A stretch of DNA of 64,000 bases from an uncultured Candidatus Saccharibacteria bacterium (lineage in GTDB: Bacteria > Patescibacteriota > Minisyncoccia > Phycocordibacterales > UBA2100): assembly GCA_964633425.1 (NCBI GenBank), contig CAZWFX010000001.1:74687-138686 (forward strand), given 5' to 3'. Both the position numbers and the translations under genes were made by a program. Below are positions 3,241 through 50,400 of this stretch, one piece after another. Under the pieces are notes generated by a model. It was not told the DNA's origin and ran no database searches. It was given only the letters and a program-made list of their open reading frames with translations. Every line of letters starts with the position of its first letter. Position 1 is the stretch's first letter.

Positions 3241-3516
3241 GTACAGTCTATAGCCAAATCGATAGACACACGTATCGCCAGGAGAGCCACCGTTCGCCGG
3301 TACCTTTCCTGGAAACCCAGATCTTGGGTTCCGGAAAAATCGCTTCGAAGTTTTCTTGTATCTTGGATGACTAGAAAGTAGAATGCCTGTTCGTGAGGCT
3401 TCCTTGGCAATCCCAATCCATGTGTGTTTTTGGGTTTTTGGGTTTTGGGAGACTCGGATTGGTCTCGATAAGGTTTCTTATATCTAAACCCTATCAAATC
3501 ATCAACTAACGTTTCT

Positions 3517-3529
3517 TATTATATCACAT
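3517..3529 (-). promoter_or_regulatory. Extended -10 promoter (TGaTATAAT) reading leftward toward the helicase operon
   Basis: The minus strand reads TGTGATATAATAA. The TATAAT hexamer is perfect, and the TG sits one base upstream (TGnTATAAT). It lies in the 400-nt divergent region between the helicase and DUF1376 genes. Confidence 0.4.
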
Positions 3530-3595
3530 TTTCGGAAAAGATTCTGTAGTGCCGCTTACACTTTGGTGCGATTTGTCAATTTGTGTCTTTTGCCA

Positions 3596-3624
3596 TTGAC
3601 TACCAGAAACCAAACCACTAGGCT
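3596..3624 (+). promoter_or_regulatory. Sigma70-like promoter TTGACT-17-TAGGCT for the rightward replication operon
   Basis: TTGACT at ~3596, a 17-nt spacer, then TAGGCT. The ATG at 3637 is only ~5-6 nt past the predicted transcription start (near-leaderless). Confidence 0.35.
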
Positions 3625-3636
3625 CTTCCATGTAAA

Positions 3637-4458: not shown

Positions 4459-6974
4459 TGTCTGATGATAATCAGTCGGAAAATAGTAAAGTACAAATAG
4501 AGACATCAATTGCCTTTGATGAAGGCAAGCAACTAGCATTCCTCGGATGGCTTTTTAGAGACCCCGGCTTGTTCGCTCAGGCGGCCAGGATCGTAAAGCC
4601 CGATTGGTTTACTGACATTTTTGCCAGGAAAGCCTACAAGGCAATGCTGGAGATCGGAAAGGCCTTTCATCGACACCCAGAGCCAGCAGAAATCCACCAG
4701 TGGAGAGGTCTTAACGGAGAAGACAGTCGAACTCGCGGCAAGATCGAACAGATCGTGTCGAGGGGGATTGAGTCTAGTATGGGGTACGGTCTGGACCTCA
4801 TTCGGTCGGACATGCAGTCGTGGCTGATGGCCACATTGTTTGTTGAGACCATCCAGAAGTCTGTTCCGGTATTTAACTCAAAGGATGTCTCCAGGGCAGT
4901 AGAACTAATGGAGAAGGGGATCTTGAAGATCAAAGCCTCTTCTTTTGCAGACGGGATTCACCAAGGATTTTCAGAGTCCCCATCCAACATGAGTCTTGAA
5001 AGGGCAGATCGGCTTCGTCACAGGGAGCGAATCCTAGAGTACGGAGTGACCTTCTTAGATGACGCCTTGTGTGGGATTCGGCCCACTGAGCTGATTATTC
5101 TAGGGGCCAAGGCCGGATGTCATGCTCTTGGACAAAAAATTAGAATGTTTGATGGATCTGTTAAGGAAGTTCAAGATATTGTATCCGGAGACCTTCTAAT
5201 GGGCACGGACGGAAATCGTCGGGTTGTTACGGGATTAATTACTGGTAAGGGTGTGATGTACAGGGTCTCTCCTGTAAAAGGAGAGCCGTTTGTAGTAAAT
5301 GGAGATCATGTTCTTAAGGTTGCTTGGACAGAATTCGATCAAACGCATTACGTTACGGTTGAACAATTCCTGGCTTGGCCAGTTACGTATCAAAAAAGGT
5401 CCAAGCTAATCCGATCTGGTGGCGTGGACTACAAGGAAGTAAATCTACCAGTCGACCCGTACTTTTTAGGAGTCTTGCTTGGAGACGGCTGCCTGGCTTC
5501 TCATCCGGTTGGAATTACAACGAAAGACCCTGAAATTCTTAGAGAAATTGAAAATCAAGCAGAATTGCTAGACTTACGAATTTCTAAGTTTGATAATAAC
5601 GGGAAAAGATGTCCAACGTATCACCTGCCGAAAAAAAATAGCGCAAAGGGCAGACAGTCATCTCTTGGAAGAGATTTGGAGTATCTTGGATTATTAGGAA
5701 AAAGATCTAACGATAAATTCATCCCAGATATCTATAAAAAATCTGGAAAGAAACAAAGACTGAGTCTACTCGCCGGATTGATTGACACGGACGGATCGCT
5801 TGGATGCTCGGTTTATGACTACATTTCTAAGTCCAAGCAACTATCGTTTGATGTTTGCGAGTTGGCTAGAAGCGTTGGCTTGGCGGCATACGTAAGGTCT
5901 TGTATTAAGACGGACCAGAACGGTGTTTCTGGCGAATACTGGAGGGTTTCTATTTCAGGTAATACTGAAATGGTTCCATGTCGTATTGAAAGAAAGAAAG
6001 CAAATAAGAGAATACAGAAAAAATCCGTATTAAGAACAGGGTTTACGATCCAGGCTATTGGAGAAGAATCTTTTTATGGGTTTGAACTTTCTGATGATGG
6101 AGAATATCTTCTAGAAGATTTCACGGAGACACACAATAGCGGCAAAACCCAGTTAAGTCTGTCTATTGCATTACATAATGCACAAAAAGGAAAGCGCGTA
6201 CATTTTTTCGCACTAGAAGCAGATCAGTACGAAATAGAGCGAAGAATTAAATACTCTATTCTAGCTAACTACTACTACAGCTCAGGAAACCACAAACACA
6301 TCGACTACGGTGCCTGGCTGAATGGGGAACTTGAAGACGAGTTGGGTGAGCTTGAAACCGCCCTTCAGGGCCAGTTTGAAGACGCTGTAAAAAACCTTAA
6401 CCTTCTCTATCGTAGAGACGGTATGTTCGACCTTGATGCCCTCAAGGAAGAACTCCTTAGTCTTGTCGGGAAAACCGACCTGATCATCCTTGATCACCTC
6501 CACTACATCGACACCGACGGGGATGAAGAAAATCGGGTATACGCGGAAGCCATTAAAACTATTAGGGATATTGTCTTAAGGTATGAGATTCCGGTTATTG
6601 TTGTTTGTCACCTTAGGAAGGACTCCACGTTTAAGGGAACTCCTACGATTGTTCCCAAGCTTGAGGACTTTCATGGAACCAGCAATATTGGCAAGATTGC
6701 CACGACGGCGATTATGCTTGGTAGGGCGTTTGACCGGGAGCCTAGCGTCCCTGGGTATTTCTTACAGCCAACCTACATGAGGATTACCAAGTCCCGAATG
6801 GATGGCGGGCGAACGTACTTTGTGGCTCTGACTGAATTCAACACCAGAACCAACTGTTACGAGCCGGTATACAAGCTTGGACGTCCAAGTAATCACGACA
6901 CGGAATGGACTGAGCTGGAAAACCTCTTGCCTTTCCAGAAGAGGCTTGCTAGTATTTTGAACATCACGCTTTAG
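4458..6974 (+). CDS. dnaB: Replicative DNA helicase DnaB-like, interrupted by an in-frame intein
   Basis: DnaB N-terminal domain. The Walker A is split: ILGAKAG | C...intein...HN | SGKTQLS, reconstituting GAKAGSGKT. The C-terminal half has the DnaB motifs LIILDHLHYID and IPVIVVCHLRK. Confidence 0.85.
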   Translation: MSDDNQSENSKVQIETSIAFDEGKQLAFLGWLFRDPGLFAQAARIVKPDWFTDIFARKAYKAMLEIGKAFHRHPEPAEIHQWRGLNGEDSRTRGKIEQIVSRGIESSMGYGLDLIRSDMQSWLMATLFVETIQKSVPVFNSKDVSRAVELMEKGILKIKASSFADGIHQGFSESPSNMSLERADRLRHRERILEYGVTFLDDALCGIRPTELIILGAKAGCHALGQKIRMFDGSVKEVQDIVSGDLLMGTDGNRRVVTGLITGKGVMYRVSPVKGEPFVVNGDHVLKVAWTEFDQTHYVTVEQFLAWPVTYQKRSKLIRSGGVDYKEVNLPVDPYFLGVLLGDGCLASHPVGITTKDPEILREIENQAELLDLRISKFDNNGKRCPTYHLPKKNSAKGRQSSLGRDLEYLGLLGKRSNDKFIPDIYKKSGKKQRLSLLAGLIDTDGSLGCSVYDYISKSKQLSFDVCELARSVGLAAYVRSCIKTDQNGVSGEYWRVSISGNTEMVPCRIERKKANKRIQKKSVLRTGFTIQAIGEESFYGFELSDDGEYLLEDFTETHNSGKTQLSLSIALHNAQKGKRVHFFALEADQYEIERRIKYSILANYYYSSGNHKHIDYGAWLNGELEDELGELETALQGQFEDAVKNLNLLYRRDGMFDLDALKEELLSLVGKTDLIILDHLHYIDTDGDEENRVYAEAIKTIRDIVLRYEIPVIVVCHLRKDSTFKGTPTIVPKLEDFHGTSNIGKIATTAIMLGRAFDREPSVPGYFLQPTYMRITKSRMDGGRTYFVALTEFNTRTNCYEPVYKLGRPSNHDTEWTELENLLPFQKRLASILNITL
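5118..6137 (+). mobile_element. Intein (340 aa) with a LAGLIDADG homing-endonuclease domain in the DnaB P-loop
   Basis: Starts with Cys (CHALGQKIRMFDGS). LAGLIDADG blocks LGVLLGDGCL and LAGLIDTDGSL. Ends ...FTETHN, followed by the +1 Ser of the extein SGKT. Confidence 0.8.
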
Positions 6975-7489: not shown

Positions 7490-9289
7490 TTGGAAAACCG
7501 TAAAGCAAAGACTGCAAGCAAGATTGTAGTCCCTAAGGGACCACTCCTAACCAAGAGGAAGCTCTCCGCAATGGAGAGAATCTCCAATATCGTTGGAGCC
7601 ACACTCGGACCTGGCGGAAGTCCGATTCTTATCGAAAGATACGAAAACGACATGCCGCCGCTAATTACAAAAGACGGGGTTACCGTTTTCAAATCTCTGG
7701 GATTTGAAGATCCTCTTGAGCAGGTGGTCTTGGATTCTGCCCGCGATGCCGCCATCAAAACGGCCAACATCGCCGGTGATGGGACAACGACAGCTACCAT
7801 TTTAGCTGAGTCTTTTGTTCGACAAATCCACGAATATTGTGAAAAGAACCCCACCTTTAGTCCGCAGGGACTGATCCGCGAACTTTACAGTGATTACGAA
7901 GAAGTCCTAGAGCCGATTTTGAAGGCCCTAGTGTTTAAGCCAGGGTCTTGTTCCTTTAGCGACTCCAAGGAATATCCGTACGACGTATATCACGGAGTGG
8001 CTGCCATTTCGGCCAACGGCGACAAGCCTCTTGCTGAGGCCGTTATGAAGTGTTACGGATTGGTCGGCGACTACGGCAACGTCTCGATCGTTGAGGCTTC
8101 TGGAAACGCAGCCTACGAGGTCGAAGCTATGGATGGCTATTTCCTGGGGTCTGGGTACCAGGATCTGGGCCAGTTCTACCCAGCCTTCATAAATGACGCA
8201 TCGCGTCAGGTGGCCAGGCTGGAGAGACCCCGGTTTGTTTTGTATTTTGGCAGGATCAACCACTTAAATTCTCTGTATCAGGCCATTTCAGATCTGGCAG
8301 AGGACTTTGACTGTAAAAATCAGACCGGTGAAAGTAAGTACGAGAACCATGACGTGGTTGTGGTCTGTACTGGCTTTAGCGAACAGGTACTTGGGACCTT
8401 GGCCGCCGGGTTCCAGACCAGCTCGGTCCTGAACGTTTACCCGTTGGTGATTCCAAAGATGCCGATGCAAAACGGGCAACTTCAGTTTCTACAAGACCTG
8501 TCTGCTATCACAGGTGCCAAGGTCTTCAATCCGCTGGACGCCCCTCTGGAGACCTGTACGACCCAAGATCTTGGTCCAGGAGTCGAGGCCTTTGAGGCAC
8601 ATGGATTCAAATCTAGCGTGATTGGCTTTGCTGACGGCTGCGAAGAGGCCGTCCTCAAGCAGGCTGATGCCATCCGGACTCAACTAATTAACCCCGAGTC
8701 TCAATTGGAACAGATCTGGCTTCAAGAACGTCTGGCTAAAATCACCAATGGTATCGCCAAGTTGATTGTAAGAGGATCGTCTACTGTCGAGGTTCGAGAG
8801 CGGAAGGATCGGGCCGAGGATGCTGTTTGTGCTGTCAAAGGAGCCATTCATCACGGGGTATTGCCTGGAGGCGCCTGGGCCATGGAGGCTCTGTCGTATT
8901 CGGCGCATCAGTGTAAAAGCGAGGCTTCCCGGAGTATCTTCAAGAAGGTCTTTTCGGAACCTCTGACTCGGTTGTTAAACAACGCGGGGTTGGTGGATCC
9001 GGCGCGTGTTGAAGCCATTCGATCTGAGATTCACAGAGGATTTACGTTTAATTCAAAGGCTCCTCTGGTTTATGACGCACTGAGTCATAAGATAGTTAAC
9101 CCTCATGACGTGTATCTGTACGACTCAGCTCAGGCAGTCTTTGAGTCCATTAAAAATAGCTTCTCTATCGCCAGCGTGGTCGGGACTCTTGGAGGCGTCG
9201 TGGCCTTCAAAAGAGACGACGAGCTGGAGCGCCAGGCCGCCAGAGAATATGCGCAAGACTACAAAGAAATGAATGAATATAAGGAATAA
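7490..9289 (+). CDS. groEL: GroEL-like chaperonin (Cpn60/HSP60 family)
   Basis: TLGPGGSPILIE...PLITKDGVTVFKSLGFEDP...AGDGTTTATILAESF matches GroEL TLGPKGRNVVL...PTITKDGVSVAREIELEDK...AGDGTTTATVLAQ. The length also fits. TTG start at 7490, preceded by GGCTATAT. An internal ATG (MERIS) is an alternative start. Confidence 0.85.
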   Translation: MENRKAKTASKIVVPKGPLLTKRKLSAMERISNIVGATLGPGGSPILIERYENDMPPLITKDGVTVFKSLGFEDPLEQVVLDSARDAAIKTANIAGDGTTTATILAESFVRQIHEYCEKNPTFSPQGLIRELYSDYEEVLEPILKALVFKPGSCSFSDSKEYPYDVYHGVAAISANGDKPLAEAVMKCYGLVGDYGNVSIVEASGNAAYEVEAMDGYFLGSGYQDLGQFYPAFINDASRQVARLERPRFVLYFGRINHLNSLYQAISDLAEDFDCKNQTGESKYENHDVVVVCTGFSEQVLGTLAAGFQTSSVLNVYPLVIPKMPMQNGQLQFLQDLSAITGAKVFNPLDAPLETCTTQDLGPGVEAFEAHGFKSSVIGFADGCEEAVLKQADAIRTQLINPESQLEQIWLQERLAKITNGIAKLIVRGSSTVEVRERKDRAEDAVCAVKGAIHHGVLPGGAWAMEALSYSAHQCKSEASRSIFKKVFSEPLTRLLNNAGLVDPARVEAIRSEIHRGFTFNSKAPLVYDALSHKIVNPHDVYLYDSAQAVFESIKNSFSIASVVGTLGGVVAFKRDDELERQAAREYAQDYKEMNEYKE

Positions 9290-20044: not shown

Positions 20045-21739
20045 ATGATTAACCCACCAACATGCCACTGCCACCCTCTTAGTCTTGACACTGGAAGTCA
20101 AATCAACGACTTTATCAAGAAAGAACAAGAGCTGGGAACCGGTTACGTTACCGCCACAGACCATGGATCCATGGGATCTGCGTATCTAATTTACACAAAG
20201 GCCAAGAAGGCCTCCCTAACACCGATTCTTGGTATCGAAGTCTACCTCAGAGACCCCGACTGCGACGTCTTAAAAGAACTGACACCAAGCCCGGAAGACT
20301 ACCTTAAATTTGGCAATCCCAAGTCTAAGTACATGCACGCCACTCTCCACTACATGGACGTGGAGGCCTACGAGGCAGGCTGCTCGGTTCTTTCAAAAGC
20401 CCCAAGAGAAAAGCACGGATCTGAAGACAAGCCCATCTACACCTGGGACGATATTGCTACCCTTGGGGCCAAAAATGTCACTGGAGGATCCGGCTGCCTT
20501 ATTGGTGTGGTGCAGCGACATCTCATGGTCGGAAGACCCGACGTCGCTGAAAAATACTATGTAAAATACAAGAACATGTTCAAAAAGGACAACTTCTTTG
20601 TTGAGGTTTTCCCTCATAAATGTACCCATAACTGGGTATCTGGTGTTTTCGTTACAGTAAAAGACAGTAACGGTGAAACCAAACAGCTTAGGTTTTACGA
20701 AGAGAAAAAGCTTAAGACCAATCACTCAGAAGAGGTCACGGCCTCTAGCCTGGCTCGATCTCCAGCCAAACACACCCACTTATTGGGGATTAAGAACTAC
20801 AGGACCTGGGACGAGGTCTCTTACAAGATCGTCTCCGTAAGGCACGTAGAAGAGTTTGTTCAAAATGAGTGTACTGTAGATGCCCCAGACGGAGATCTGC
20901 AAGCCAGAGCCAACAAATTCGTTTTGCAGATGGCCGAGAAGTACGGAGACCCAGTGATCAGCTCCGATGACAGCCACTACGTAAGCCCGGAAGACAAAAT
21001 TGTTCAGGACGTGGCTCTGGCTCAGTCGGGTAAGTGGAGGTTTTTCGGTAGTTATCATAGGCAGAGCGCGGCCGAGCAGTTTGCCTGTTACAAAGAGACT
21101 TTGGGGCTTGGTGAAAGGGAGTTCGAAAAATGGACGAACAACGCTCTAGAATGGGCTTCTAAATTCAAAAACTTTGAGTTTTCTTACAAACCATCACTAG
21201 CCAATAAATTCTATCCGTCCGACACCCTTGGATACCTAAAATCCTTGATGGAAAAGCACGGAAGAATAAATAACGCACCAGAATACACCCAGCGCCTAGA
21301 GACCGAAATTCAAATGCTTCACAACAACGGCAAAATCGATTTGTTGCCGTACTTCTTTCCCGCCGAAGAGGTCTGTGAAGAGTACGCTATCAACGGAGAG
21401 CTTGCGGGGCTTGGCCGAGGCAGTGCCGCAGGGTTGCTGGTGTCGTACTACCTGGGTATTACCCACATAGATCCAATAAAGGACGGCCTGTCAATGGAAA
21501 GGTTCATTTCCATTGACCGTATTTTGGGAGGCAAGCTTCCAGATATCGACCAGGACCTTTCGTCAACAGATTACCTTGTTGGTACCGCAATAGATCGCGT
21601 TACGGTAGAAATGGAGGACGGTACCGTTAGGGAATATTTGTCTGAGGAACTCATTCAGACCGAAGAGGGCCCCATGACCATCTTCGAAGCGGCAACTAAA
21701 AAGCTGGATATCTTGGATTTGGATGAGAGTGATGAATAA
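20045..21739 (+). CDS. dnaE: DNA polymerase III alpha (DnaE) N-terminal segment: PHP domain plus palm, with an acidic C-terminal extension
   Basis: PHP His cluster (HCHPLSLDTGS...ATDHGSM...GIEVY...SDDSHY). The palm motif LAGLGRGSAAGLLVSYYLGITHIDP...ERFIS...LPDIDQD matches [23 protein letters not shown]...ERFLNPER.SMPDIDIDF. Confidence 0.8.
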   Translation: MINPPTCHCHPLSLDTGSQINDFIKKEQELGTGYVTATDHGSMGSAYLIYTKAKKASLTPILGIEVYLRDPDCDVLKELTPSPEDYLKFGNPKSKYMHATLHYMDVEAYEAGCSVLSKAPREKHGSEDKPIYTWDDIATLGAKNVTGGSGCLIGVVQRHLMVGRPDVAEKYYVKYKNMFKKDNFFVEVFPHKCTHNWVSGVFVTVKDSNGETKQLRFYEEKKLKTNHSEEVTASSLARSPAKHTHLLGIKNYRTWDEVSYKIVSVRHVEEFVQNECTVDAPDGDLQARANKFVLQMAEKYGDPVISSDDSHYVSPEDKIVQDVALAQSGKWRFFGSYHRQSAAEQFACYKETLGLGEREFEKWTNNALEWASKFKNFEFSYKPSLANKFYPSDTLGYLKSLMEKHGRINNAPEYTQRLETEIQMLHNNGKIDLLPYFFPAEEVCEEYAINGELAGLGRGSAAGLLVSYYLGITHIDPIKDGLSMERFISIDRILGGKLPDIDQDLSSTDYLVGTAIDRVTVEMEDGTVREYLSEELIQTEEGPMTIFEAATKKLDILDLDESDE

Positions 21740-21784: not shown

Positions 21785-22051
21785 ATGGACCCCAAATCAC
21801 TAGCAAAATCCTTTATGGATCTTTCAGTTGAAGATCAGGCCGAATTCTTTCTACAATTAACCATCTTGTTCCGTAAGGTGATGCCCTCGACGCAAGAGCG
21901 GCTTCTCAAGGAACTGGCCAATAAGATTTACTTTTTGGATCACGAAGACGATTCGTACCTAAACGGTCTTGTGGTGGCTCTGTTCGATCAACACGACGAA
22001 GAAGAAAAAACCGTGTATGTGGAATCTACAAAAAATGGGCTGAATAATTGA
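21785..22051 (+). CDS. Hypothetical acidic 88-aa protein inserted between the two dnaE segments
   Basis: The ORF fills the gap exactly. No homing-endonuclease motifs. Confidence 0.3.
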   Translation: MDPKSLAKSFMDLSVEDQAEFFLQLTILFRKVMPSTQERLLKELANKIYFLDHEDDSYLNGLVVALFDQHDEEEKTVYVESTKNGLNN

Positions 22052-24331
22052 ATGAAGATAAAGGAAATCCTCTCGGTTAAAACAGAACGGAAGCCCGGAT
22101 GGCTAGATCGCCGCTTCGGAGAGCACTTTGCTCGAATTTCAACCGTTACTACCAGGAAGCTGAAATATGCCATCAGGGACGTCGCCCGCTTTACTTACGG
22201 CAAGGGCATGATCCCGTATGACATCGAGCGACTGGCCAAGGCCATTCAGACTCCACCACAGGGCGTGAACGACTACGACTTCGTATTCGGCTATGAAGAG
22301 GCAGGACGTTTCGTTGAGGGTACGATAAATACTGACCCAGCTCTAAAGGAGTATGTCAAAAAATACCCTAACCAATGGAAGATTGTAGTCAAATGCCTTA
22401 GCTTGGTTAGAAACAGCTCGCTACACGCCTGTGGTTATGTAATCGCCTCCAGGCCAATCCGGGAGTTTATGCCGCTCTCTTCCATAAAGGGAACTGAGTG
22501 TACAGAATTCACGGCTAATTCATCAGACGGGATATCTTCCGTTGAGGGCGTAGGCGGCATCAAATACGACTACCTTAAACTAAACTCTCTAAAAGATGTT
22601 CAGATTGCAGTTAAACTAATACAAAAACGATCTGGACTTCAAATACCTGATTTTATTACAAAAAATGGGCGATGTCCAAAGGTCAGGATCCTACCATACA
22701 AAGGCCAATTAGAAGACATCTGGACGTCGTTACCTGAAGAGCCTGAAGTTTTTTCGGACATTTCCAATGGGGATACGGAGTCTGTTTTTCAGCTTTCTAC
22801 TCAAGGAGCCTTGAAGTGGCTGAAACTTTTTAATCAGGTAGGAAGGGACGAAAAGCCACTAATCTCGTCTGTAAGAGATATCGCTATTTTTACAGCCCTA
22901 GATCGACCAGGGCCGCTCGATATCGAGCTTACCAATCCAGAAGACGGGTCTAAGCACAACGCCTTGGTTGAGTACGTGAGAAGGGCCAGAGGACTGCCTC
23001 CATCAGAGGATATTTTGGAGGTCTTTGACAAACTTTTTCCTGAGACCAAAGGGATTCTTGTTTTCCAAGAACAGCTCCAGAGAGCATACCAGACACTCAC
23101 AGGCTGTTCTGGGGCTGAGGCCGATGAGTTCCGCTCAAACGTCGCCAAGAAGAGGGCGACCAAGGTGGCGGCCGCTTACGAGACGTTCGTTAAGCGGGCT
23201 GGGCAAATCCTTGGATCTGAAGAAAAGGCGGCTCAGGTATTTCAAGCTTTCGGAACCTGGTCAAACTATGGGTTCTGCCTAGCTCACGCCGTTAGCTACG
23301 CAAGACTTGCGTACGTTATTGCCTTTCTTAAGCGTCATTTTCCACTTGAATGGTGGACGGCCGTGTTGTCAAACGCCACCAAGGACGATATCTCCGATAA
23401 GTTCTGGCCAAAATGCTCAGAGATTATTGATTTGCCAGACATGTCAAATCCAAGAGATCGATTCGATATCGTAAATGAAAGAATTCAAGCCCCAATAGGA
23501 ATGCTTTGGGGTGTCGGCGGCAAGGCTCAAGAACAAATAGTCGCTTTTGCCCCATATTCTACAATCGATGAGTTTTGTGGTGGTATCCAAAAGTACAAGG
23601 AGCTAAATGCTATCACCACAACCGAAACAAAAGAAGTTAAGGGCGTGGTGAAGACTGTTTCTAAAAGGCGTCTTGGAAGATCGGCTGTCCATTCTGGTGT
23701 CGTGTACTCGCTCGTTGTCTCGGGAGCTATGGACAGCCTGTTTGAGCCAGGCCTTACCCTTGAAGAAAAGCTCCTGGCATACGAAAAAGCCATTGCCAAG
23801 GCCTCTGGAGCAAAAAAACACAAACCAGTCAAACCACAATTTAAGGATCTGAACGCCTACAACCAATTCCTAATGAGGAAGAAGCTCTTGCCAGTCTTTA
23901 CACAGAGCCTTCCAGATCTAATGGTAGACTGTAAACATCCATTAGTTTCAACTACTTATGGCAAACCCAGGTACAAGATAGCCGATCGGTTTGTGGACTT
24001 ATGGGGACTTAAGGAGCTTCGGCAGTTTGAAGAACACGGAAGTTCCATTCCGTCCGGAGGCTACCGAGCCGCCATTCCAGGATACGTCTCTAGCGTTAGG
24101 CGTTTTACGTTTGATGGCAACAAGGAAGCTTGTGCGATTGCTTTGAATATTGAGGGCGTCAATCAAGAATTTGTTAAGTGGCCGGATTGGAACTCTAAAA
24201 AGCTAGATCCGCGATACGACGCGGATCTGGAAAAGAGTCTGCTAGTTTTACATGTCGTAAAGCGACGTGAAGATCGGCCGTTCGTCGTTGAAAACTTTGA
24301 GGTTTTGGCCTCTAATCAAGCAAAACCGTAG
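22052..24331 (+). CDS. dnaE: DNA polymerase III alpha (DnaE) C-terminal segment: fingers and downstream domains
   Basis: [24 protein letters not shown] matches DnaE [46 protein letters not shown] matches R.TGxHAAGVVIS..PL...VPL. Confidence 0.8.
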   Translation: [759 protein letters not shown]

Positions 24332-24362: not shown

Positions 24363-27300
24363 GTGACACCAGAAGAAAAACAGCAGCTTGAGCGCCAGCT
24401 CCTGTTCACTCCTTGCAAGACAAAGGAGGAGCTGGGGGACTGGATAGATCACATGCTGGGGTATCGGTTACCCGACTGCATTGTTGACGCCGACTCCAAC
24501 TCCTCTCCATTAGATCTTGTTTGGGAGATCTACCACGAAGCTCTCTACGTAAACAATCCAAATTTCGAAAAGATTCTAGCATACGCGAACAGATTTGGCG
24601 CGAAAACCCTGGGCGCTAGTGCCCTAGAGCTTTTGATGGTCTTTCATGACCAAAGAGACGTTGTCCACCTGGCTGCCATTGAGGAGCAGTCAACAGACTG
24701 CCTCAACTACGTTAAAAAGGCACTCCGCAATCCCGTAATGGCACCTTTTGAGGTTCAGGGAGATAAACGAGCCATTACGATCCAAGTCTTTAAAAAAGAC
24801 GGTAAATACTATTCCCCTAAGGAATATGAAAAAATCCCGGATGTAGAAAAGTTTGGGTTTCAGGAGTATTTCAATAAAATTGAAGTCATTGTGGCGACTC
24901 CAAAGTCGCTCAACGGGAAGCATGGCGCTTTCTTTTGTATTGATGAAAATACACCATTACTAATAGCAGATAAAACCAGATCGAGGAAAAGTCGGTCGGC
25001 CAAATTTGTCTTTAACACCATAGCCGGGCTCCCGGTAACAGGCAGGAGGGGTCGTCTTCCTATAGAAGATCTTGACATTTCTAACCCACAAAAGGATATT
25101 GAACTACTTACCTTCAATTTCTCTACAGGAAGCCTGGAGCCAAAGAAGATCCTTCGCGGACATCGTAAAAGGGCACAAACGATAAATATCGTGGCGGGCA
25201 AGAGGAGTTTGATTTGTACGCTAGATCATCCCATCTTTGTATTCGGGAAAGGCTTCACAGAAGCCGGTGCTGTGTCTCTAGGAGATAAGATTCTCGCGAT
25301 CGGCAAGGGTGGCTGGGGAAATCGACAATTCCTGTCAAAGGAGATTCAAAACAAAGATTCGATCATACGAGATCCTGGAGATCTATTTGAGCAGGTCGTC
25401 TTAGGTTCTCTCCTTGGCGACGGATCTTGTCTAAAACATACTCGCAGCAAAAACGCTTATTTTTCTGAACGACACTGCATTGAGCAGGCTGAATATCTAA
25501 ACTGGAAACGTCAGATAATTGGTCAGCAAGTAAAAACCTCAGAATGTAAAAACATAGCCAGCGGGTATACCGGGAATCCTCAAGCTGGATTCTATACACA
25601 AAATAGTCATATATTTAACCAATGGTTAGGATTTAAGCAGAACTTTCAAAATCTCGAAAAGATTAGTCCCATTGGACTTGCAGTTTGGTATATGGACGAC
25701 GGGTACGCTAAAGGATTTAGTATAGCTTCTCATGGGTTCACTAAAAATCAAAATGAGAGACTTGTTGAAATTCTTTGGAATAAATTTCAAATAAAAGCTA
25801 GAGTTGCTAGAGAAGTTAAGAAAGACGGAAGATCCTATTGGTATATAACAGGAGGATTAGATGCAAAAAAACGCTTGGTAGAAATTTGTCGTCCATACAT
25901 ACACCCACAAATGGCGTTCAAGTTTGATATAGAAAGTCACTCCAAACAGTGTGTCGCTTGTGGTCATAAATTTTGGCCACATCAGCAAGGACCAAGTTCA
26001 AAAACTTGTGGACAGGCCGTATGTCTGTCGGTCCTAGCGGGTACATTTGAAGCCGTGTCTGTCGATAGAATTGAACCTGCAGGAGAAAGAACCGTTTATG
26101 ATTTTACGGTAGAAAATAACCACAATTTTTTCAGTGGACAGATCCTTAGCCATAATTGTATGGACGAAACAGACCTTCTTGACAACGAGTCTATCGTCCA
26201 AGAAGCCGACGGAGTACCCACCCCAACAAAAGATAGAAGAGCCAAGCACCCGATCGTCTATATGACATCTACCAGAAAGAAGGCGGCGGGTAGGGTCCAG
26301 AAGCTTATTGATAGGGCAGAGCAAGAAGACATCCGTGTTAGACACTGGAACTTGATTGACATCACAAAACCATGTCCCCCAGAAAAACACCAACCAAACG
26401 AACCTAAGGTCTCGATGTATGTGGACGACAACGCCCTCAAGGCCATCCCAGAAGAATCATACGAACAGCTAAACGAAGGCGATCGACTAAAATATCAAAA
26501 ACACGAGATGTTTCAGGGCTGTAAGTCCTGCCCATTGGCCGCCACTTGTAAGAGTCGGTTGGCTACTCATCAAAAATCCAGTAATTCTACACTCTTACTG
26601 GATCACGCATTCACCACCAAAAAGGTAACTAAGGGAAATATTGAATTCATTAAGTCGCAGTTTCTATGCAGGAAACCGCTGTCTACCGGATCTATCTTTT
26701 CTAGGTTTAGCAGAGAAAGGCATTTACTTTCAGCGGCTGAGATCTATGAAAAGCTAGAGCAGCAAGAGGCCCCAGCCAACTTTAACAAGCAAAGTCTAGT
26801 CAAGTATCTAAAGGCTCATCCACTGGCCAAATTTTACGGTGGTATTGACTTTGGTTACACCCACATGTTTGTTGCTATAGTCGCGGCCAAGGTCGGTCTC
26901 CACTGGTTTGTATTGGACTGCCTTATGGCCACCGAGTTGGAGACCATGGAATGCGTGGATTTGTGCAAGAGATCCTTTTATCATTACGGAGCTGAATGGT
27001 ATCCGGATCCTGAAAATCCACAACTTATAAGTACGTTTAAAAAGCATGGATTTAATTGTATCGATTTTTCCAAGAAGAAAGGGACGGTCTTGGCTGGAAT
27101 TGAGGCGATTCGAGCAAAGCTCAATCCTGGACCAGATGCCGAACCTCAAATGTTCTTTCTGAAGGGAGATCCTTCTATTGACGGGGAAGAAGAGTCTTTA
27201 GTGGAAGCCATGGAAAAATGGGCCTGGAAGTTGTCTCCTGCCGGAGAGCCGACAGACATCCCTGCAGAAAAGCATAAGGACCAATGCTTTACGTCAGATA

Positions 27301-28538
27301 CGGAGGTACTGACCCCATCTGGGTGGGTTTCCCTTAAGGACATCACAACAGAGGATGAGGTTTTGTCTATTACCAGAAACGGCGTCGCTTATTTTGAAAA
27401 ACCGTATCGGGTGATCCATCAAACATATTCTGGACCTATGATTTCAATTCATAAAAATCATTTAAAGTTCAGCTCAACTAAGGGACACGCCCATTCCGTA
27501 ATAAGTCAATTTAACTGGAGGGTAAAGAAGAGATGGATTTTTGATAAAAAGACGTTCGATGAACTCCCGGCTGAGTCTTATTGGGCTAACTCGTTCAAAG
27601 AAATTGCTGAAGGTCCGGGTCTGTTTGAGGGAGGACAAGACGAGGCCTGGGTTGCTGGGTTTTGGGTTGCCGAGGGATGCTTTGATCGGTCCAACCCAAC
27701 TCAAATTCTAATAGATCAAAAAAAAGAAAAACACAAAAAAGAATGTCGTGAGAGGCTTAGCCGTCTCGGGTGGTCATATTTTGAAAAGACAAGAGCACAA
27801 GATCGGCTTATGACTAGGTTTTGTATTAATAGTCAAAGAGATCGAATAGTTAAATGGAAAGAGTGGTTTAATCATGGAGCCAAGAATAAAAAACTCAATC
27901 CGGGTATTGTTTTACAAATGACAAAAACGGAACGTCGCTCGTTTTTTGATGGATATATGGCAGGAGACGGCTCTACGACCCAAAGTCTTTGGCATTTTGA
28001 TTCTATTTCCAGAGATCTTATTGATGGAATCCAATTTTTAGCGTTGTGCCTTGGATATGGATGTCGTGTAGTTACCTATGACTGTATGAGAGAAGATCGT
28101 CCTTCTACCCTTAAGGGTAAGATGCATCGATCATGGAGAGGACATGTTTTAAGATCTAGACCTGTTTGTCATATCAAAAAGAGTAGTTTTTTTGAATGGA
28201 CGGCTAAAGACATTGAGGTTCACTGTGTTTCCGTATCCACTGGGATCTTTTTGGCTAGAACCGCAGGAGATGTCTTCGTGGCCGGAAACTGTGACGCATT
28301 GCGTTATATGGTTTACAACATCACTCCGGTAAGGGCCACAACCGGCAACCGAGGAGGCCGACCTACCAACGAAGAGGTGGCCTCTAGGCCCAAAACCCTG
28401 TCAGAGCAATTTTGGGATACCATGAAATCAGAAGGCGAGCCTCTTTTTGGCCTAGATATGTCAGAAAGGCCGGATCCTTATGACACAGACCCGTCGTCCG
28501 GAAGGCCGTCGCCGAAGATCCGTAAGAGGTTCTTTTAG
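24363..28538 (+). CDS. Terminase large subunit (TerL) interrupted by two inteins; about 649 aa of extein
   Basis: Extein: deviant Walker A ANRFGAKTLG. The Walker B GAFF|CMDE is reconstituted across intein 1. RNase-H-like nuclease motifs YGGIDFGYTH and KHKDQ|CDALRYMVYN are reconstituted across intein 2. GTG start preceded by GGCTATAT inside a hairpin. Confidence 0.75.
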   Translation: MTPEEKQQLERQLLFTPCKTKEELGDWIDHMLGYRLPDCIVDADSNSSPLDLVWEIYHEALYVNNPNFEKILAYANRFGAKTLGASALELLMVFHDQRDVVHLAAIEEQSTDCLNYVKKALRNPVMAPFEVQGDKRAITIQVFKKDGKYYSPKEYEKIPDVEKFGFQEYFNKIEVIVATPKSLNGKHGAFFCIDENTPLLIADKTRSRKSRSAKFVFNTIAGLPVTGRRGRLPIEDLDISNPQKDIELLTFNFSTGSLEPKKILRGHRKRAQTINIVAGKRSLICTLDHPIFVFGKGFTEAGAVSLGDKILAIGKGGWGNRQFLSKEIQNKDSIIRDPGDLFEQVVLGSLLGDGSCLKHTRSKNAYFSERHCIEQAEYLNWKRQIIGQQVKTSECKNIASGYTGNPQAGFYTQNSHIFNQWLGFKQNFQNLEKISPIGLAVWYMDDGYAKGFSIASHGFTKNQNERLVEILWNKFQIKARVAREVKKDGRSYWYITGGLDAKKRLVEICRPYIHPQMAFKFDIESHSKQCVACGHKFWPHQQGPSSKTCGQAVCLSVLAGTFEAVSVDRIEPAGERTVYDFTVENNHNFFSGQILSHNCMDETDLLDNESIVQEADGVPTPTKDRRAKHPIVYMTSTRKKAAGRVQKLIDRAEQEDIRVRHWNLIDITKPCPPEKHQPNEPKVSMYVDDNALKAIPEESYEQLNEGDRLKYQKHEMFQGCKSCPLAATCKSRLATHQKSSNSTLLLDHAFTTKKVTKGNIEFIKSQFLCRKPLSTGSIFSRFSRERHLLSAAEIYEKLEQQEAPANFNKQSLVKYLKAHPLAKFYGGIDFGYTHMFVAIVAAKVGLHWFVLDCLMATELETMECVDLCKRSFYHYGAEWYPDPENPQLISTFKKHGFNCIDFSKKKGTVLAGIEAIRAKLNPGPDAEPQMFFLKGDPSIDGEEESLVEAMEKWAWKLSPAGEPTDIPAEKHKDQCFTSDTEVLTPSGWVSLKDITTEDEVLSITRNGVAYFEKPYRVIHQTYSGPMISIHKNHLKFSSTKGHAHSVISQFNWRVKKRWIFDKKTFDELPAESYWANSFKEIAEGPGLFEGGQDEAWVAGFWVAEGCFDRSNPTQILIDQKKEKHKKECRERLSRLGWSYFEKTRAQDRLMTRFCINSQRDRIVKWKEWFNHGAKNKKLNPGIVLQMTKTERRSFFDGYMAGDGSTTQSLWHFDSISRDLIDGIQFLALCLGYGCRVVTYDCMREDRPSTLKGKMHRSWRGHVLRSRPVCHIKKSSFFEWTAKDIEVHCVSVSTGIFLARTAGDVFVAGNCDALRYMVYNITPVRATTGNRGGRPTNEEVASRPKTLSEQFWDTMKSEGEPLFGLDMSERPDPYDTDPSSGRPSPKIRKRFF
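24936..26156 (+). mobile_element. Intein 1 in TerL (407 aa) with a LAGLIDADG endonuclease, inserted at Walker B
   Basis: Block A CIDENTPLLIADK. LAGLIDADG-like LGSLLGDGSCL and LAVWYMDDGYA. Block F/G TVYDFTVENNHNFFSGQILSHN. +1 Cys. Confidence 0.75.
27285..28289 (+). mobile_element. Intein 2 in TerL (335 aa) with a LAGLIDADG endonuclease, inserted at the nuclease catalytic Asp motif; non-canonical C-terminal GN
   Basis: Block A CFTSDTEVLTPSGW. LAGLIDADG-like WVAGFWVAEGCFD and FFDGYMAGDGS. C-terminal ...DVFVAGN with +1 Cys. The penultimate residue is Gly where His is usual. Confidence 0.65.
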
Positions 28539-29542: not shown

Positions 29543-31633
29543 ATGTCTGAAGTTAAAGATCCTATCTTACAGTCCTTAGTTGAAAATGAAGATCCGAGGG
29601 TGGATTCAAACGGAGGGCCTTCAAGACTTTACAAGAGCGTTGCGGACACTCTTTCGCTAACGGCGTCTGAGGATGAAAAGGTCCATCGGCTCGCATTTGA
29701 GCGAGATCCGAACAGAATCTACAACAGCTTCATCTACGTTGGCAAGTCAAATCGCGTCTTGGCTGATTCAACGATCAAGAAGATGGTCCTTACGGACGAT
29801 CTCGTCGGGACGATTGTCGGCCGCAGGCAGGATCACCTATCTCGATTTGGTCGAGAGCAGCCCAACCGCTCGTCTCTGGGATTTGTTATCGAAAAGACCC
29901 AGTACATGGCCCAAGAGATCGCCAAGATTAAGGACGATCAAAAACGCCAGCAGGTCCTGGATGAACTCAACGAAAAGATCCAGCGAGTGATCCGCCTCAT
30001 TTCCACTTGCGGAGACCCAAACGCGGCCACTGACAAAATGGACTTTTCTGAGTACCTTGGGTTGATTGCTCGAAATGCTGTAGCCCACGGACGGTGTGCT
30101 ACGGAAATCGTTTACGAGACAGATATCTGGACAGGAACTCAAAAGTTCTCCTACTTCAGACCGACAGACGTCGCGACTATTTTTAAGGCTCGTCCATTTA
30201 GCCGTCAGACTCAGTCTGTTAGAGAGTCGGGCCTAAAGGAGATTGAGCGTCTCCAGGAATGTCAAATCGATCCTCAGAAATGGATTAACGAGGAGTACGC
30301 CTGGATCCAGGTAATGGAGGACGGAACTCCCAAGATGGCCTTTACGGCCAAGGAGATGGTCTGTAAGAACTTCTATCCGGCTCTCGACGTAGAGCTAGAA
30401 GGCTATCCAGTCACTCCAATCGACGTGGCCATTACTTCAATTATAAGCCACATCAGCCTCACTCGCTACAACAAGTTATACTTCGAGTCTGGCAGATCCG
30501 CCAAGGGTATGTTGGTTCTAGAATCTAATTCTATTGACCAAAAGGAAGTGGAAAAAATCCGCCAGGGCTTCCAAGCCATGATCACCGGCAACAACAACGC
30601 CCACCGGATGCCACTTATCAATATCGATAAAGACGACAAACTGATCTTTTCTCCGTTTGAGACTGGCTCAAAAGATATGGAATTTCAATATCTTAGCGAC
30701 ATGACCGCTAGGATTATTTTCAGTGCTTTTGGTATGTCTCCGGATGAAATCACTGGGTGGGCGTATCTTTCCAGAGGTATGTCGAACCAGGGATTGGCGG
30801 AGTCGAACAACTCGTTCAACTTGACGGCGACCAGAGACACGGCGATTCGCTCGTTGCTTGGCAATGTAGAGAACTATCTAAACAGAGAGATTCTACCGTT
30901 ACTAGATCCTCAACTGGCGGACAAGGTGGTGATCCGTCTGGTTGGTCTGGATGCCGAGACTCCAGAAAAAGAGTCTATTCGTCTGCAGCAGGACCTCAAG
31001 ATCCATTACACAATGGACGACGTCCTACGCAAGGTCAACAAGCCGCCCATTGGCAAGTGGATGGGTGGAGAGCTGCCATTTAGTCCGGACTACCAAGCCA
31101 AGCTGGATGCCTATTTTACCGTTGGCGAGATCCTTGAATTCTTTTGCGGAAGAGAAGGGGCCTCCAGGGATCCTCTCTTGGCCTATCGTAGAGATCCTTT
31201 CTGGTTCCAGCACTTGCAGTTCCAGCAGTCTGAAAGACAAATGCAGCAGCAGGAACAGATGATGCAGCAGGAATCGCAGCAGCAACAGGGAGGCGGAACC
31301 GACGGGGACTCTGGCAAGGATACTCCTTCTCAGAAAGATCCGCAGCAAGGACAGATGACCGAACAGGATCAGGCTAGGGGCGGGAACGATCCGCAAAACC
31401 TACCCAAAAACCCAGATCCAGCCAAGTCCAATAAGGGATTTGAGCGTAAAATGGCCGATCTTAATGCCAGCATCGGAGAGGCTTTAACAGAAATCTCCAA
31501 GTCTGAGTATACCAGATCGGACCAGATGGCCCAAAAACAAAATTCAGTAGTACGAAATCTAGTAAAAGATCTTAACAAAGAAGCCTCCAGGGCTCTTGAA
31601 GATATGATGAGGTTGCTTAGACCTCTTAAGTAG
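29543..31633 (+). CDS. Putative portal protein
   Basis: A 696-aa protein directly downstream of terL and upstream of a Mu-F-like head protein. Gln/acid-rich C-terminal tail. Assignment is mainly by position and size. Confidence 0.45.
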   Translation: MSEVKDPILQSLVENEDPRVDSNGGPSRLYKSVADTLSLTASEDEKVHRLAFERDPNRIYNSFIYVGKSNRVLADSTIKKMVLTDDLVGTIVGRRQDHLSRFGREQPNRSSLGFVIEKTQYMAQEIAKIKDDQKRQQVLDELNEKIQRVIRLISTCGDPNAATDKMDFSEYLGLIARNAVAHGRCATEIVYETDIWTGTQKFSYFRPTDVATIFKARPFSRQTQSVRESGLKEIERLQECQIDPQKWINEEYAWIQVMEDGTPKMAFTAKEMVCKNFYPALDVELEGYPVTPIDVAITSIISHISLTRYNKLYFESGRSAKGMLVLESNSIDQKEVEKIRQGFQAMITGNNNAHRMPLINIDKDDKLIFSPFETGSKDMEFQYLSDMTARIIFSAFGMSPDEITGWAYLSRGMSNQGLAESNNSFNLTATRDTAIRSLLGNVENYLNREILPLLDPQLADKVVIRLVGLDAETPEKESIRLQQDLKIHYTMDDVLRKVNKPPIGKWMGGELPFSPDYQAKLDAYFTVGEILEFFCGREGASRDPLLAYRRDPFWFQHLQFQQSERQMQQQEQMMQQESQQQQGGGTDGDSGKDTPSQKDPQQGQMTEQDQARGGNDPQNLPKNPDPAKSNKGFERKMADLNASIGEALTEISKSEYTRSDQMAQKQNSVVRNLVKDLNKEASRALEDMMRLLRPLK

Positions 31634-47482: not shown

Positions 47483-50400
47483 GTGCCTACCCTTGGTCAC
47501 CTCTTAGGATTCTTGCTTTCTGGAGACGCTTTTTCGGTGGATTTCGCCGAACATGACTCCGGCAAGATCTACCTCACGTTCTCCCAAACACCCAAAACCA
47601 CCGACGCGGCCGCCGCAAACGACGGCCTTAACCCATCTAACTATACACTTTCCGGAGGCTTCACCAACGATATTGTCTTGGTTGAAACTACCGCAGATCC
47701 GACCATTTTAGCTCTAACGCCGCGATATCCTTTAACAAATGGATATTGGCAGATCCAAGTTGCCGCTGCTGTTGTGGATTCAACTCTGGCCAACACGATG
47801 GGGCTTCCCAACAGTTGGACCTTTTTGGTTGGTGGCATGTTTGAGGCGGAGGTGGTGTCGCAGGGTGCTACGAGTCCGATGGCCCTGGACGTTTTGAATG
47901 AATTTTTGAATCCGGCCTATGTAGGCAAGACCAACTGGGACAACATCATGGAGTCTGTGGCTGTGGCCGAGCAGGTGGCTTATGACAACGCCAGGCTGGC
48001 ATTCGATCAGACCCACATTTCTTCTGCTGTAGGGAAATATCTTACACAGAGGGCCGGAGACGTTGGCCTGGCTCGCCAGCAAGGAGTCTGGCTAACAGAC
48101 GACAAATTCAGGCAATATGTCATTAGATCGACCAATAGGAAGCTAACGGAAGAGTCTCTCCTGTCTCTCTTGGAGGTGTTTTACGGGATTGATTCCGTTC
48201 GTGCCACCTGCACTTCAGTCTTGCCAGAGCCCTATGCTATCACAGAAGGCGATGAGCTGGATGTTTTGATTGACGAGAGGGACTCCTTCAAGGTGGTCTT
48301 CTCTGACACCGACTTCGGGATGCCAGGCCAAGGGACTGCGATTGAGGTGGCTGCGGCCATCACCAGATGGGCGGCTCTGAATGGCTGCACGGCCATTGCT
48401 CTACCGTACCAGGATCCAGAAAGTGGCGAGACGTATGTCAAGATCTATTCCTATGGTATTGGGCTGGGTTCTACCGTACGGGTTACCGGAGGGACCGCTC
48501 AAGAGCACCTACACTTCCCTACATTTCTTGACATTTACACGGCAGATCCACTCCCGTCATGGGACGTCACCTATGACTCCGTAACACAGAGGGTGCGGTT
48601 TACAGTACAGGGCGTCGGAGTGGCCTTAAACCCCAACCTGCAAAGTGTCTTGGTTGGCGATTACGTTAACATTACTGGCACGGAATTTGCAACAGACAAT
48701 CTCGGCAGCTACAAGATCTTGGATCTTTCGGTCGAGTACACGTTCGAAGCCACACCTCAATTGATTATGTGGTTTGAGGTGGAAAATCCAAACGGATTTA
48801 CACAAACAGTAACACAACTAGAAACCAATTCAATCTCGTTTTATCGTCCTACCAAGGTCAACTCTTACGTAAGCCCGGCGACTTCCGTTATCGTGGCCGA
48901 CTTTGAAGATGGAGTTACGGTAAAACTACCCGCGACCTCTTCGGCCGTCGCCCGTGAGCCGTACTATGCCGCGTATCTGCATTCTCCAACAGAAGTGGAA
49001 ATTTCCAGCTATGTTGTAAAAGACGGCACGGCCACCATAACGACATCTACGGCGCATGGTCTGTCTGCTGGACAAAGGATTATGCTGGAGGGGCTCACCC
49101 CAACCAACGTAGAGCCGACCACCACGCCAGCCGTCTCTGGGGTGTCCGCGACGTCGCAGGTGACTGTCTGGTCTTCCACCGACACCGGCGTCATCCATTC
49201 CTATGGATCTATGGCCAAGATCAACGACACTCGCGTGGTAAGTATGCAGGGGTTCGATCACGGAGGGACCCTTTCTTCCATCACATTAACCAACGATGGC
49301 AATACCACAGACATCGTAACGACCGAGGCTGGTGGCCTCAGAACTTCCAATTTTAGTTCCATCGGGACCACCGGAGGAGCAGCGGTGTCTCACTCCAATG
49401 CAGTGCCGTATTCGGTCAACTGGGCGGCCATTCTTGGAGAACCAGGAGCCTTTGTTACTGGCGGAATTCAAGAAAGTACCGGTATCTATTCTGGTAGCAC
49501 CCAGTCTCTGTTTGTGCTGACCGACACCGGAACTGTTACGGTAAACTCAAGCGCCATGACGCAGGCTCACGCAGGTCATGTCATGGGAGCGGTCGGAGAT
49601 GACCTTTACGTCTTCGGAGGAATGGGAGCCAATTGGCAATTTACGATACCCAACTGTATCTCTTTCAACAAGGTAACTGGGACATGGACCACCAGGGACT
49701 CGATGAACAGTCCCGGTCTAAGCCCAAACACATATGCGGCTGGTAGATTCGAAGGAGCGGTTTCGGCCCTCTCCAATGGCGAAGACTTTATGGTCACCGG
49801 AGGAAGGTCGTTGGCCATGGGACCCTACTACGACGGTCCTACAGTGGCTCTGTGGAGGCTAGACGACAGTGCTGCGGCTCCTGGTTATTTTGGACCCTAC
49901 GGCTCTGGCATGACAGGGACCGACACCAACCTGGTAACAGCCGCCCCAACTTCTTACAATGCCAATTCCAAAAATGGCGTGGCGTTCCCACTGGCGACGT
50001 CCAAGCTACAAGGAACCCCCAACGCTGGGCTAATCAACACCCTGGTGTCTAGATCTTTTACGGTCGAAGGATGGTGGAGATACGAAGGCTCTAACCCACA
50101 AAACGCATTTTTTGCAGTTTCGGCTACCGGAGGAGGTACCCCAAATAACCTGCTCTTTGGCTTTGGGCCCAGCTACTCAGCCACCACTAAGTGGGGGATC
50201 TGGTGGGAAAATCAATCAGAGGCCAGAGTCCTTAGAGAGTCTTCTGCCACAATTGCCTCTACCGTTTTAAGGGAGTGGAATTATTGGGCCGTAACCGTTG
50301 CCCCAGATACCGCTGCAGACGAAGTAATCGTTAGTTTGTACATCAATGGCTTGCTGTTGCAGTCCTGGCCTGGAGTCAAGACGGCTTTCGGCGGATCCAA

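Follow-up and report, generated by a model that had tools for sequence, protein, structure and literature searches.

The terminase locus

We analysed a stretch of 64,000 nucleotides, referred to as the window, which spans positions 74,687 to 138,686 of contig CAZWFX010000001.1 (assembly GCA_964633425.1, an uncultured Candidatus Saccharibacteria bacterium), and we focused on the open reading frame (ORF) at 24363-28538. This ORF encodes a precursor of the large terminase subunit (TerL), in which two predicted inteins separate three extein segments. The features of the locus are listed below in window coordinates; equivalences to the TerL of phage SPP1 (G2P) are based on profile alignment.

24363-28538, + strand: TerL precursor ORF, GTG start, 1391 amino acids, stop included; three extein segments and two inteins
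24363-24935, + strand: extein segment 1, extein amino acids 1-191, N-terminal ATPase part, ending ...GAFF inside the Walker B strand
24603-24608, + strand: Walker A Lys81-Thr82, invariant in 57 aligned sequences
24936-26156, + strand: intein 1, 407 amino acids, class 1, CIDENT...ILSHN followed by CMDE, with a LAGLIDADG_2 endonuclease
25215-25232, + strand: intein 1 block B, CTLDHP
25401-25427, + strand: intein 1 LAGLIDADG motif LGSLLGDGS, acidic residue present
25680-25706, + strand: intein 1 LAGLIDADG motif AVWYMDDGY, acidic residue present
25950-26024, + strand: intein 1 four-Cys ribbon, CVACGHKFWPHQQGPSSKTCGQAVC, between the endonuclease domain and block F
26094-26132, + strand: intein 1 block F, VYDFTVENNHNFF, with Asp
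26142-26156, + strand: intein 1 end, ILSHN
26157-27284, + strand: extein segment 2, extein amino acids 192-567
26157-26159, + strand: +1 Cys192, following intein 1
26163-26168, + strand: Walker B Asp194-Glu195, invariant in 57 aligned sequences
26847-26849, + strand: nuclease Asp422, invariant, equivalent to G2P D266
27006-27008, + strand: nuclease Asp475, invariant, equivalent to G2P D321
27279-27281, + strand: nuclease Asp566, 93% Asp and otherwise His, equivalent to G2P H400
27285-28289, + strand: intein 2, 335 amino acids, CFTSDTEVLT...FVAGN followed by CDALRY, with a LAGLIDADG_3 endonuclease
27474-27494, + strand: intein 2 block B, STKGHAH, with T65 at B:7 and H68 at B:10
27654-27680, + strand: intein 2 LAGLIDADG motif AGFWVAEGC, acidic residue E130
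27945-27974, + strand: intein 2 LAGLIDADG motif FDGYMAGDGS, acidic residue D228
28218-28244, + strand: intein 2 block F, VHCVSVSTG, Cys314 in place of the usual class 1 Asp
28275-28289, + strand: intein 2 end, FVAGN
28290-28538, + strand: extein segment 3, extein amino acids 568-649 plus stop; disordered basic C-terminal tail
28290-28292, + strand: +1 Cys568, following intein 2
28293-28295, + strand: catalytic Asp569 in CDALRY, invariant, equivalent to G2P Asp403 and aligned with LDADRY of the D6E TerL
29543-31633: portal gene, downstream of TerL; the order TerL, hypothetical gene, portal is as in phage Mx1

The frame is open over 4.2 kb, with no stop codons or frame changes, and NCBI has an identical protein of 1391 amino acids on record, encoded on a contig of 156,311 bp. 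A preliminary description made from the letters of this DNA had placed two in-frame insertions at 24936-26156 and 27285-28289; their coordinates and ends are exact. It had also read the insertions as inteins which begin with Cys, contain two LAGLIDADG blocks and are followed by a +1 Cys, and the matches to Pfam families, PDB sequences and structure models presented below agree with this.

Identity of the host protein

Excision of the two segments yields a TerL of 649 amino acids which is colinear with intein-free homologues, and restores the motifs GAFF-CMDE and KHKDQ-CDALRY as the preliminary description had proposed. A search with the spliced extein found 114 homologues, about 80% of which are 620-720 amino acids long and intein-free. 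The spliced product was aligned with 56 intein-free homologues (57 sequences); the junction regions are almost free of gaps, and position 190 shows the only one, in a single sequence. Columns without any variation are K81-T82, D194-E195, D422, D475, D569, R572 and Y573, and position 566 is occupied by Asp in 53 sequences and by His in four. In the empty alleles Cys is the commonest residue at the +1 position of both sites, while Val, Pro and Ala are tolerated.

The closest TerL of an isolated phage is that of Myxococcus phage Mx1 (WNM70314.1), which is intein-free. The spliced extein aligns to it in a single tblastn piece across both junctions (residues 5-578, 88% of the extein, 39.7% identity, E 4e-120), whereas the alignment of the unspliced protein breaks precisely at both insertion points. 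Mx1 is the only distant relative that tblastn found among 50,697 phage records; no close sequenced relative is among them, and a megablast of the TerL gene against the same records gave zero matches.

That the extein belongs to known TerL families holds for PHROGs, where it matches four terminase families (best 2e-12; phrog_9 TerL covers amino acids 58-230), but not for Pfam, where a scan of the spliced 649-amino-acid extein matched no family. The TerL identity is therefore drawn from PHROGs, Mx1, profile-to-PDB searches and fold searches. The AlphaFold model of the spliced TerL, built from 56 sequences, has a predicted local distance difference test score (pLDDT) of 89.2. In Foldseek it matches the full-length terminases of D6E, T4 (gp17), HK97 and Sf6 (E 9e-15 to 1e-9), the ATPase domains of T4 gp17 and P74-26, and the nuclease domains of SPP1, P22 and G20c (target TM-score, TMt, 0.61-0.70). 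The model places a strand at 190-194, just ahead of the Walker B DE, and a helix at 565-578; pLDDT is low after residue 583.

Also, a TerL family profile can be aligned to the nuclease domains of D6E (E 2e-7) and SPP1 G2P (E 3.5e-7), both of known structure; this alignment pairs D422 with D266, D475 with D321, D566 with H400 and D569 with D403 of G2P. In G2P, mutation of D266, D321 or D403 disrupts the nuclease, H400A significantly impairs it, and a Mn2+ ion is held by H400 and D403; either Asp or His has been described for terminases at the position of H400 (PMC2685612). Based on its sequence, the host protein of ORF 24363-28538 is a large terminase, the predicted DNA packaging enzyme, which confirms the earlier assignment. 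The ORF should thus be annotated as a TerL precursor with two inteins; for phylogeny and for terminase typing, the mature form of 649 amino acids is the one to use.

Intein 1 in the Walker B strand

Intein 1 is located at the F191/C192 boundary, inside the strand 190-194 and two residues ahead of the invariant D194-E195, so that the Walker B position assigned to it in the preliminary description holds. In Pfam it matches LAGLIDADG_2 (5e-20, profile positions 2-156 of 168) and Intein_splicing (5.8e-10, 39.6 bits against a curated cutoff of 35.8), and its PDB sequence matches are the NrdJ-1, DnaX and gp41-1 inteins and I-SceI. All the hallmarks of class 1 are present, namely Cys1, TLDH in block B, Asp in block F, the SHN end and the +1 Cys; its sequence thus assigns intein 1 to class 1 in the canonical form.

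Alleles at this site are found in about 25 homologues. The TerL alleles end in HN, KN, KQ, RN, RQ, HQ or SN and are always followed by Cys. Against the allele of a closely related locus (L002), the ratio of nonsynonymous to synonymous substitution rates (dN/dS) of intein 1 is 0.078 overall and 0.06 in the endonuclease part, values of 0.06-0.08 which indicate that the entire intein, endonuclease included, is under purifying selection. The four-Cys ribbon CVACGHKFWPHQQGPSSKTCGQAVC is kept in two further alleles (P0003 and P0004) and in a mini-intein which lacks the endonuclease (P0006, an insertion of 230 amino acids). Possibly this is a zinc ribbon that serves folding or the recognition of DNA.

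Intein 2 at the nuclease site and its Gly-Asn family

Intein 2 is located at the Q567/C568 boundary, one residue ahead of the invariant Asp569 of DALRY. The preliminary description had put it at the catalytic Asp of the nuclease, and Asp569 indeed corresponds to Asp403, the essential metal-binding residue of G2P (PMC2685612). According to the profile alignment, Asp566 and Asp569, the equivalents of the metal ligands His400 and Asp403, are parted by the intein. Its Pfam match is LAGLIDADG_3 (1.2e-8). The AlphaFold2 (AF2) model of intein 2 matches the TliVMA, PI-SceI, PhoVMA and PI-TkoII inteins in Foldseek (E 8e-9 to 6e-6, query TM-score, TMq, about 0.5), which points with moderate confidence to a Hedgehog/intein (Hint) fold.

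Comparison of five alleles at the DALRY site shows that C1, T65, H68, E130, D228, C314, G334 and the +1 Cys are invariant; residue 335 is Asn in intein 2 and Gln in one of the others (P0100). These catalytic positions are kept although the inteins are only about 50% and the exteins about 35-40% identical. Two residues which are typical of class 1 without being obligatory are replaced in intein 2: the penultimate His by G334 and the Asp of block F position 4 (F:4) by C314. The ends reported earlier, SHN for intein 1 and VAGN with Gly in place of the penultimate His for intein 2, are correct.

A full HMMER scan of 1.84 billion representatives found 2536 relatives of intein 2 at E<=1e-3. The signature counts that follow are those of the relatives with complete ends among the best 150 of the 2536. 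Cys1 is found in 126 of 127. At F:4, 73 of 75 have Cys and two have Ser, and the penultimate residue (G:6) is Gly in all 75. The terminal residue is Asn in 71 and Gln in four, and the +1 residue is Ser (36), Cys (28) or Thr (11). The motif C[DN]xx[RKQ]Y, which we took to mark the DALRY site of TerL, follows 21 of the 75. All the TerL alleles inspected at that site terminate in FVAG[N/Q] followed by C. Some of its alleles (P0100, P0151 and P0186) end in Gly-Gln, with both last residues off the His-Asn consensus. Concerning the hosts, the family includes inteins of TerL, of proteins with RpoB-like extein motifs, of thymidylate synthase and of DNA methylases, and the signature is shared by inteins of isolated phages, namely the thymidylate synthase (Thy1) intein of Corynephage P1201, DNA methylase inteins of the mycobacteriophages Akhila, Dorothy and others, and an intein in the ATPase domain of Gordonia phage GMA6 TerL. 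By sequence, intein 2 is a member of a large and predominantly viral family of inteins characterised by Cys1, T-x-x-H, Cys at F:4, Gly-Asn and Ser, Cys or Thr at +1.

Class 3 inteins are defined by the lack of a position-1 nucleophile and by Trp at B:12, Cys at F:4 and Thr at G:5 (PMC5050341). The Cys at F:4 is shared between intein 2 and class 3 inteins such as the DnaB intein of mycobacteriophage Bethlehem. Membership of intein 2 in class 3 was rejected, as it has a Cys1 nucleophile and carries His70 in place of Trp at B:12 and Ala333 in place of Thr at G:5; only Cys314 at F:4 fits.

The Gly-Asn end had been regarded as a possible obstacle to C-terminal cleavage, and this concern is not supported. 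Class 1 inteins of phages often have Gly, Lys or Ser in place of the penultimate His (PMC5050341), and inteins without it can splice (PMC5050341; PMC7664689). The Bethlehem RDF intein, which has a penultimate Gly, splices completely, and its G316H mutant reaches about 50% splicing only after more than 5 h (PMC5050341). A paper on RNA polymerase inteins (PMC1635734) makes no statement on penultimate residues. The universal Gly in the family, together with the published splicing of a Gly intein, suggests that Gly-Asn is a fixed trait compatible with efficient splicing and not a lesion. As it is coupled to a block-F Cys throughout this very large family, it offers a clean mechanistic target.

Predicted splicing and alternative explanations

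Two independent inteins would have to be spliced out for the TerL precursor to become functional, a reading to which we assign a probability of roughly 0.88. With its Walker B strand interrupted by intein 1, the unspliced protein should be unable to build an ATPase site, and with inteins both at Walker B and between the metal ligands of the nuclease the unspliced TerL should lack both activities. Splicing would start with an N-S acyl shift at Cys1, followed by trans-thioesterification onto the +1 Cys and then by Asn cyclisation and an S-N shift; in intein 2, where the penultimate His is missing, other residues would assist the Asn cyclisation. The endonucleases of both inteins appear to be intact, each consisting of one domain with two LAGLIDADG motifs and an acidic residue in each motif. 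With such apparently intact homing endonucleases, the inteins would be maintained and would invade, through homing in co-infected cells, TerL alleles that lack them, and the targets would be the most conserved and least mutable TerL codons. Splicing, endonuclease activity and homing are thus predictions for both inteins.

Several observations on intein 2 weigh against this reading. Intein 2 does not match Intein_splicing in Pfam, and a PDB sequence search with it matched nothing, for which reason the structure model and Foldseek were used; the model itself, built from five sequences, is only moderate (pLDDT 64.9, predicted TM-score, pTM, 0.68). With protein identities of only about 50%, even the nearest relatives of intein 2 are too distant for a DNA-level estimate of selection. 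Also, given the conserved block-F Cys, its chemistry may not be purely class 1.

One or both inteins could act as a conditional switch, for example through a redox disulfide among Cys1, Cys314 and Cys+1, so that TerL would mature late or conditionally; this would add to the splicing reading. The position of the inteins in catalytic centres, where the precursor should be inactive, and the clustering of several cysteines at the splice sites are consistent with such a switch, and TerL inteins, those of Mic1 among them, have been suggested to serve regulation (PMC5050341; PMC7156551). However, site occupancy is polymorphic among close relatives, which shows that the phage can do without the inteins, about 80% of the family members from the extein search are intein-free, and insertion in conserved motifs is equally expected of a selfish homing element. 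We regard a switch as unlikely, with an outside chance of being correct. It is quite doubtful that the pairing of block-F Cys and penultimate Gly, alongside Cys1, marks a splicing chemistry of its own and thus an unrecognised subclass of inteins intermediate between class 1 and class 3. The block-F Cys would then serve as an acyl relay or a disulfide gate, and the nuclease and packaging would be conditional here.

Concerning the route of splicing alone, intein 2 might depart from plain class 1, with Cys314 acting as a nucleophile or relay or standing in for the penultimate His, which would make its family a mechanistic hybrid. The near-universal Cys at F:4 together with the invariant Gly at G:6 among the relatives would suit this, since the Cys at F:4 is the obligate nucleophile of class 3 while Asp is commonest there in standard inteins (PMC2807308; PMC5050341). 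Nevertheless, Cys1 is almost always kept in these relatives and T-x-x-H of block B is retained, whereas the two other members of the class 3 triplet are missing (His70 at B:12, Ala333 at G:5). Moreover, a class 1 intein given the Trp-Cys-Thr (WCT) triplet and a Cys/Ser-to-Ala change of its first residue shows no class 3 splicing (PMC7664689). Such a departure therefore seems distinctly improbable to us.

Only the departure from the His-Asn consensus and the missing Intein_splicing match would speak for an intein 2 which is dead for splicing without its penultimate His, in a TerL pseudogene or a defective remnant of a genome. The intact frame over 4.2 kb, the conservation of the catalytic positions across diverged DALRY-site alleles, the universal Gly-Asn in a family that includes inteins of viable isolated phages, and the good splicing of a phage intein with penultimate Gly (PMC5050341) make this very improbable. 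Finally, the segments were considered as ordinary TerL domains particular to this lineage, or as independent homing endonuclease genes wrongly read into a single ORF. This is refuted: both segments are absent from more than 50 homologues, which show no indel where the junctions lie, the Mx1 alignment is uninterrupted, the segments match intein and LAGLIDADG families, and there are no stops or frame changes.

Insertion sites and mobility

Based on a hidden Markov model (HMM) of the intein-free homologues, inteins occupy at least six sites in this TerL family:

Site a: Walker A, at the K/T boundary
Site b': about eight residues upstream of Walker B
Site b: Walker B (intein 1)
Site c: QFL/CRKP, with the insertion at the slash
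Site e: around profile position 410
Site d: DALRY (intein 2)

One relative (P0005) has four inteins in a single TerL of 2157 amino acids. Another (P0002, encoded at L002 4929-10457) has three, at sites a, b and c, with site d empty, whereas the window has inteins at b and d. An Mx1-like TerL family in which six or more sites can be occupied, and in which one protein can have as many as four inteins, goes slightly beyond the literature. The preliminary description had called this phage unusually intein-dense; this is true in comparison with most phages but not within the lineage, where relatives have three or four TerL inteins and one in DnaE.

The exteins of P0002 and of the window are 97% identical in protein and 91% in DNA. 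The empty site d of P0002 reads KHKDQVDALRY in protein and GACCAG followed by GTGGATGCGCTG in the DNA of L002. Upstream of it 29 of 30 nucleotides are identical to the window; six of the first 12 nucleotides downstream differ, some of them in the +1 codon, which is GTG (Val) against TGT (Cys) in the window. The DNA identity of the extein between the window and L002 is a mosaic, with 100% at nucleotides 630-870, at least 97% up to about nucleotide 990 and about 83% at nucleotides 1260-1950. The synonymous divergence (dS) of the Walker B intein is 0.91, and that of the extein 0.53. This mosaic identity and the higher dS of the intein indicate recombination within the TerL gene. The GC content is 41.4% in intein 1, 41.6% in intein 2 and 47% in the extein, and at third codon positions (GC3) it is 0.35-0.36 in the inteins and 0.51 in the extein. 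As far as sequence comparison goes, the pattern is what recurrent homing and loss, with flanks that were co-converted, would leave.

Comparison with known systems

The TerL of cyanophage Mic1 (MN013189) likewise contains two inteins, of which the first interrupts the ATPase domain and the second the nuclease domain (PMC7156551). As read from the Mic1 sequence, its nuclease intein occupies the same site as intein 2 (AQQDHL/CFVAGTQ...LVSN/CDALRYVLAT, with +1 Cys) and also lacks a penultimate His, ending in Ser-Asn. The architecture is therefore precedented to the residue. There are also differences: the ATPase intein of Mic1 is found in Walker A with a +1 Thr, whereas intein 1 is in Walker B; the nuclease element of Mic1 is a mini-intein of 146 amino acids without an endonuclease, whereas intein 2 has one; and the Mic1 TerL belongs to a different family, since it is not among the tblastn matches of the window extein. 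The Mic1 mini-intein was considered as a shortened relative of intein 2 and rejected, as only block A is similar. The site between the metal ligands of the nuclease is thus occupied in two unrelated TerL families, that of the window and that of Mic1, by unrelated inteins. Like the number of insertion sites, this shared site and the fixed pairing of Gly-Asn with a block-F Cys go slightly beyond the literature.

In mycobacteriophages TerL is the commonest intein host, with seven sites which are all in the ATPase domain, including Walker A and Walker B (PMC5050341); intein 2, by contrast, is in the nuclease active site. TerL1-e is in Walker B, the position shared with intein 1, and TerL1-a and TerL1-b are in Walker A (PMC5050341). 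TerL1-e groups with class 3 in that phylogeny (PMC5050341), whereas intein 1 is class 1. The mycobacteriophage inteins that were assayed spliced, and two with identifiable endonuclease domains cut intein-free TerL alleles (PMC5050341). A survey of 2025 reports 293 TerL inteins in actinobacteriophages.

The inteins of P1201 Thy1, of the Akhila/Dorothy group and of GMA6 TerL belong to the family of intein 2 (tblastn E 1e-15 to 8e-8, 21-27% identity). They share with it Cys1, C[YFL]xxDTE[VL]LT, VYC or VWC in block F and Gly-Asn, but have a +1 Ser where intein 2 has Cys, and their host or site differs (the GMA6 site is just ahead of Walker B). An intein of the intein 2 type at the DALRY site is found in no isolated phage of the 50,697-record collection. 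What is new here is the combination of a class 1 intein in Walker B with an intein carrying Cys at F:4 and Gly at G:6 at the DALRY site, both with endonucleases, in an Mx1-like TerL. The TerL of the window does not change the understanding of inteins or of packaging; it is a well-resolved addition to the known pattern in which homing inteins accumulate in catalytic motifs of phage packaging and replication enzymes.

Other genes in the window

The DnaB-type helicase at 4458-6974 contains a LAGLIDADG intein of 340 amino acids in its P-loop (5118-6137; ILGAKAG/CHALGQ...FTETHN/SGKTQL), with a canonical His-Asn end and a +1 Ser. The preliminary description had mentioned this intein, and it is real.

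DNA polymerase III alpha (DnaE) is present as two ORFs (20045-21739 and 22052-24331) and is broken inside the pol3_alpha domain; the match to the Pfam profile DNA_pol3_alpha is divided between the upstream ORF (profile positions 17-110) and the downstream one (122-250). Between them an ORF of 88 amino acids at 21785-22051 belongs to no known family. An Rfam scan of the window gave no match and no tRNAs were found; the split DnaE thus bears no sign of a known intron. A split intein at the break was also considered and rejected, as neither ORF has a Pfam intein match and the residues outside the pol3_alpha matches appear too few for intein halves. The same split layout is found in L002 (2-4897), where the C-terminal DnaE ORF (1568-4897) encodes 1109 amino acids with intein and LAGLIDADG matches, whereas that of the window (22052-24331) encodes 759 amino acids without them. 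Here, too, an intein present in one of two near-identical phages is absent from the other.

Among the genes of the tail and baseplate region, a protein of 1436 amino acids (47483-51793) has Kelch-repeat matches, each below the per-stretch threshold of Pfam. The window also encodes a Cpn60/TCP-1-type chaperonin of 599 amino acids at 7490-9289 (1.2e-30).

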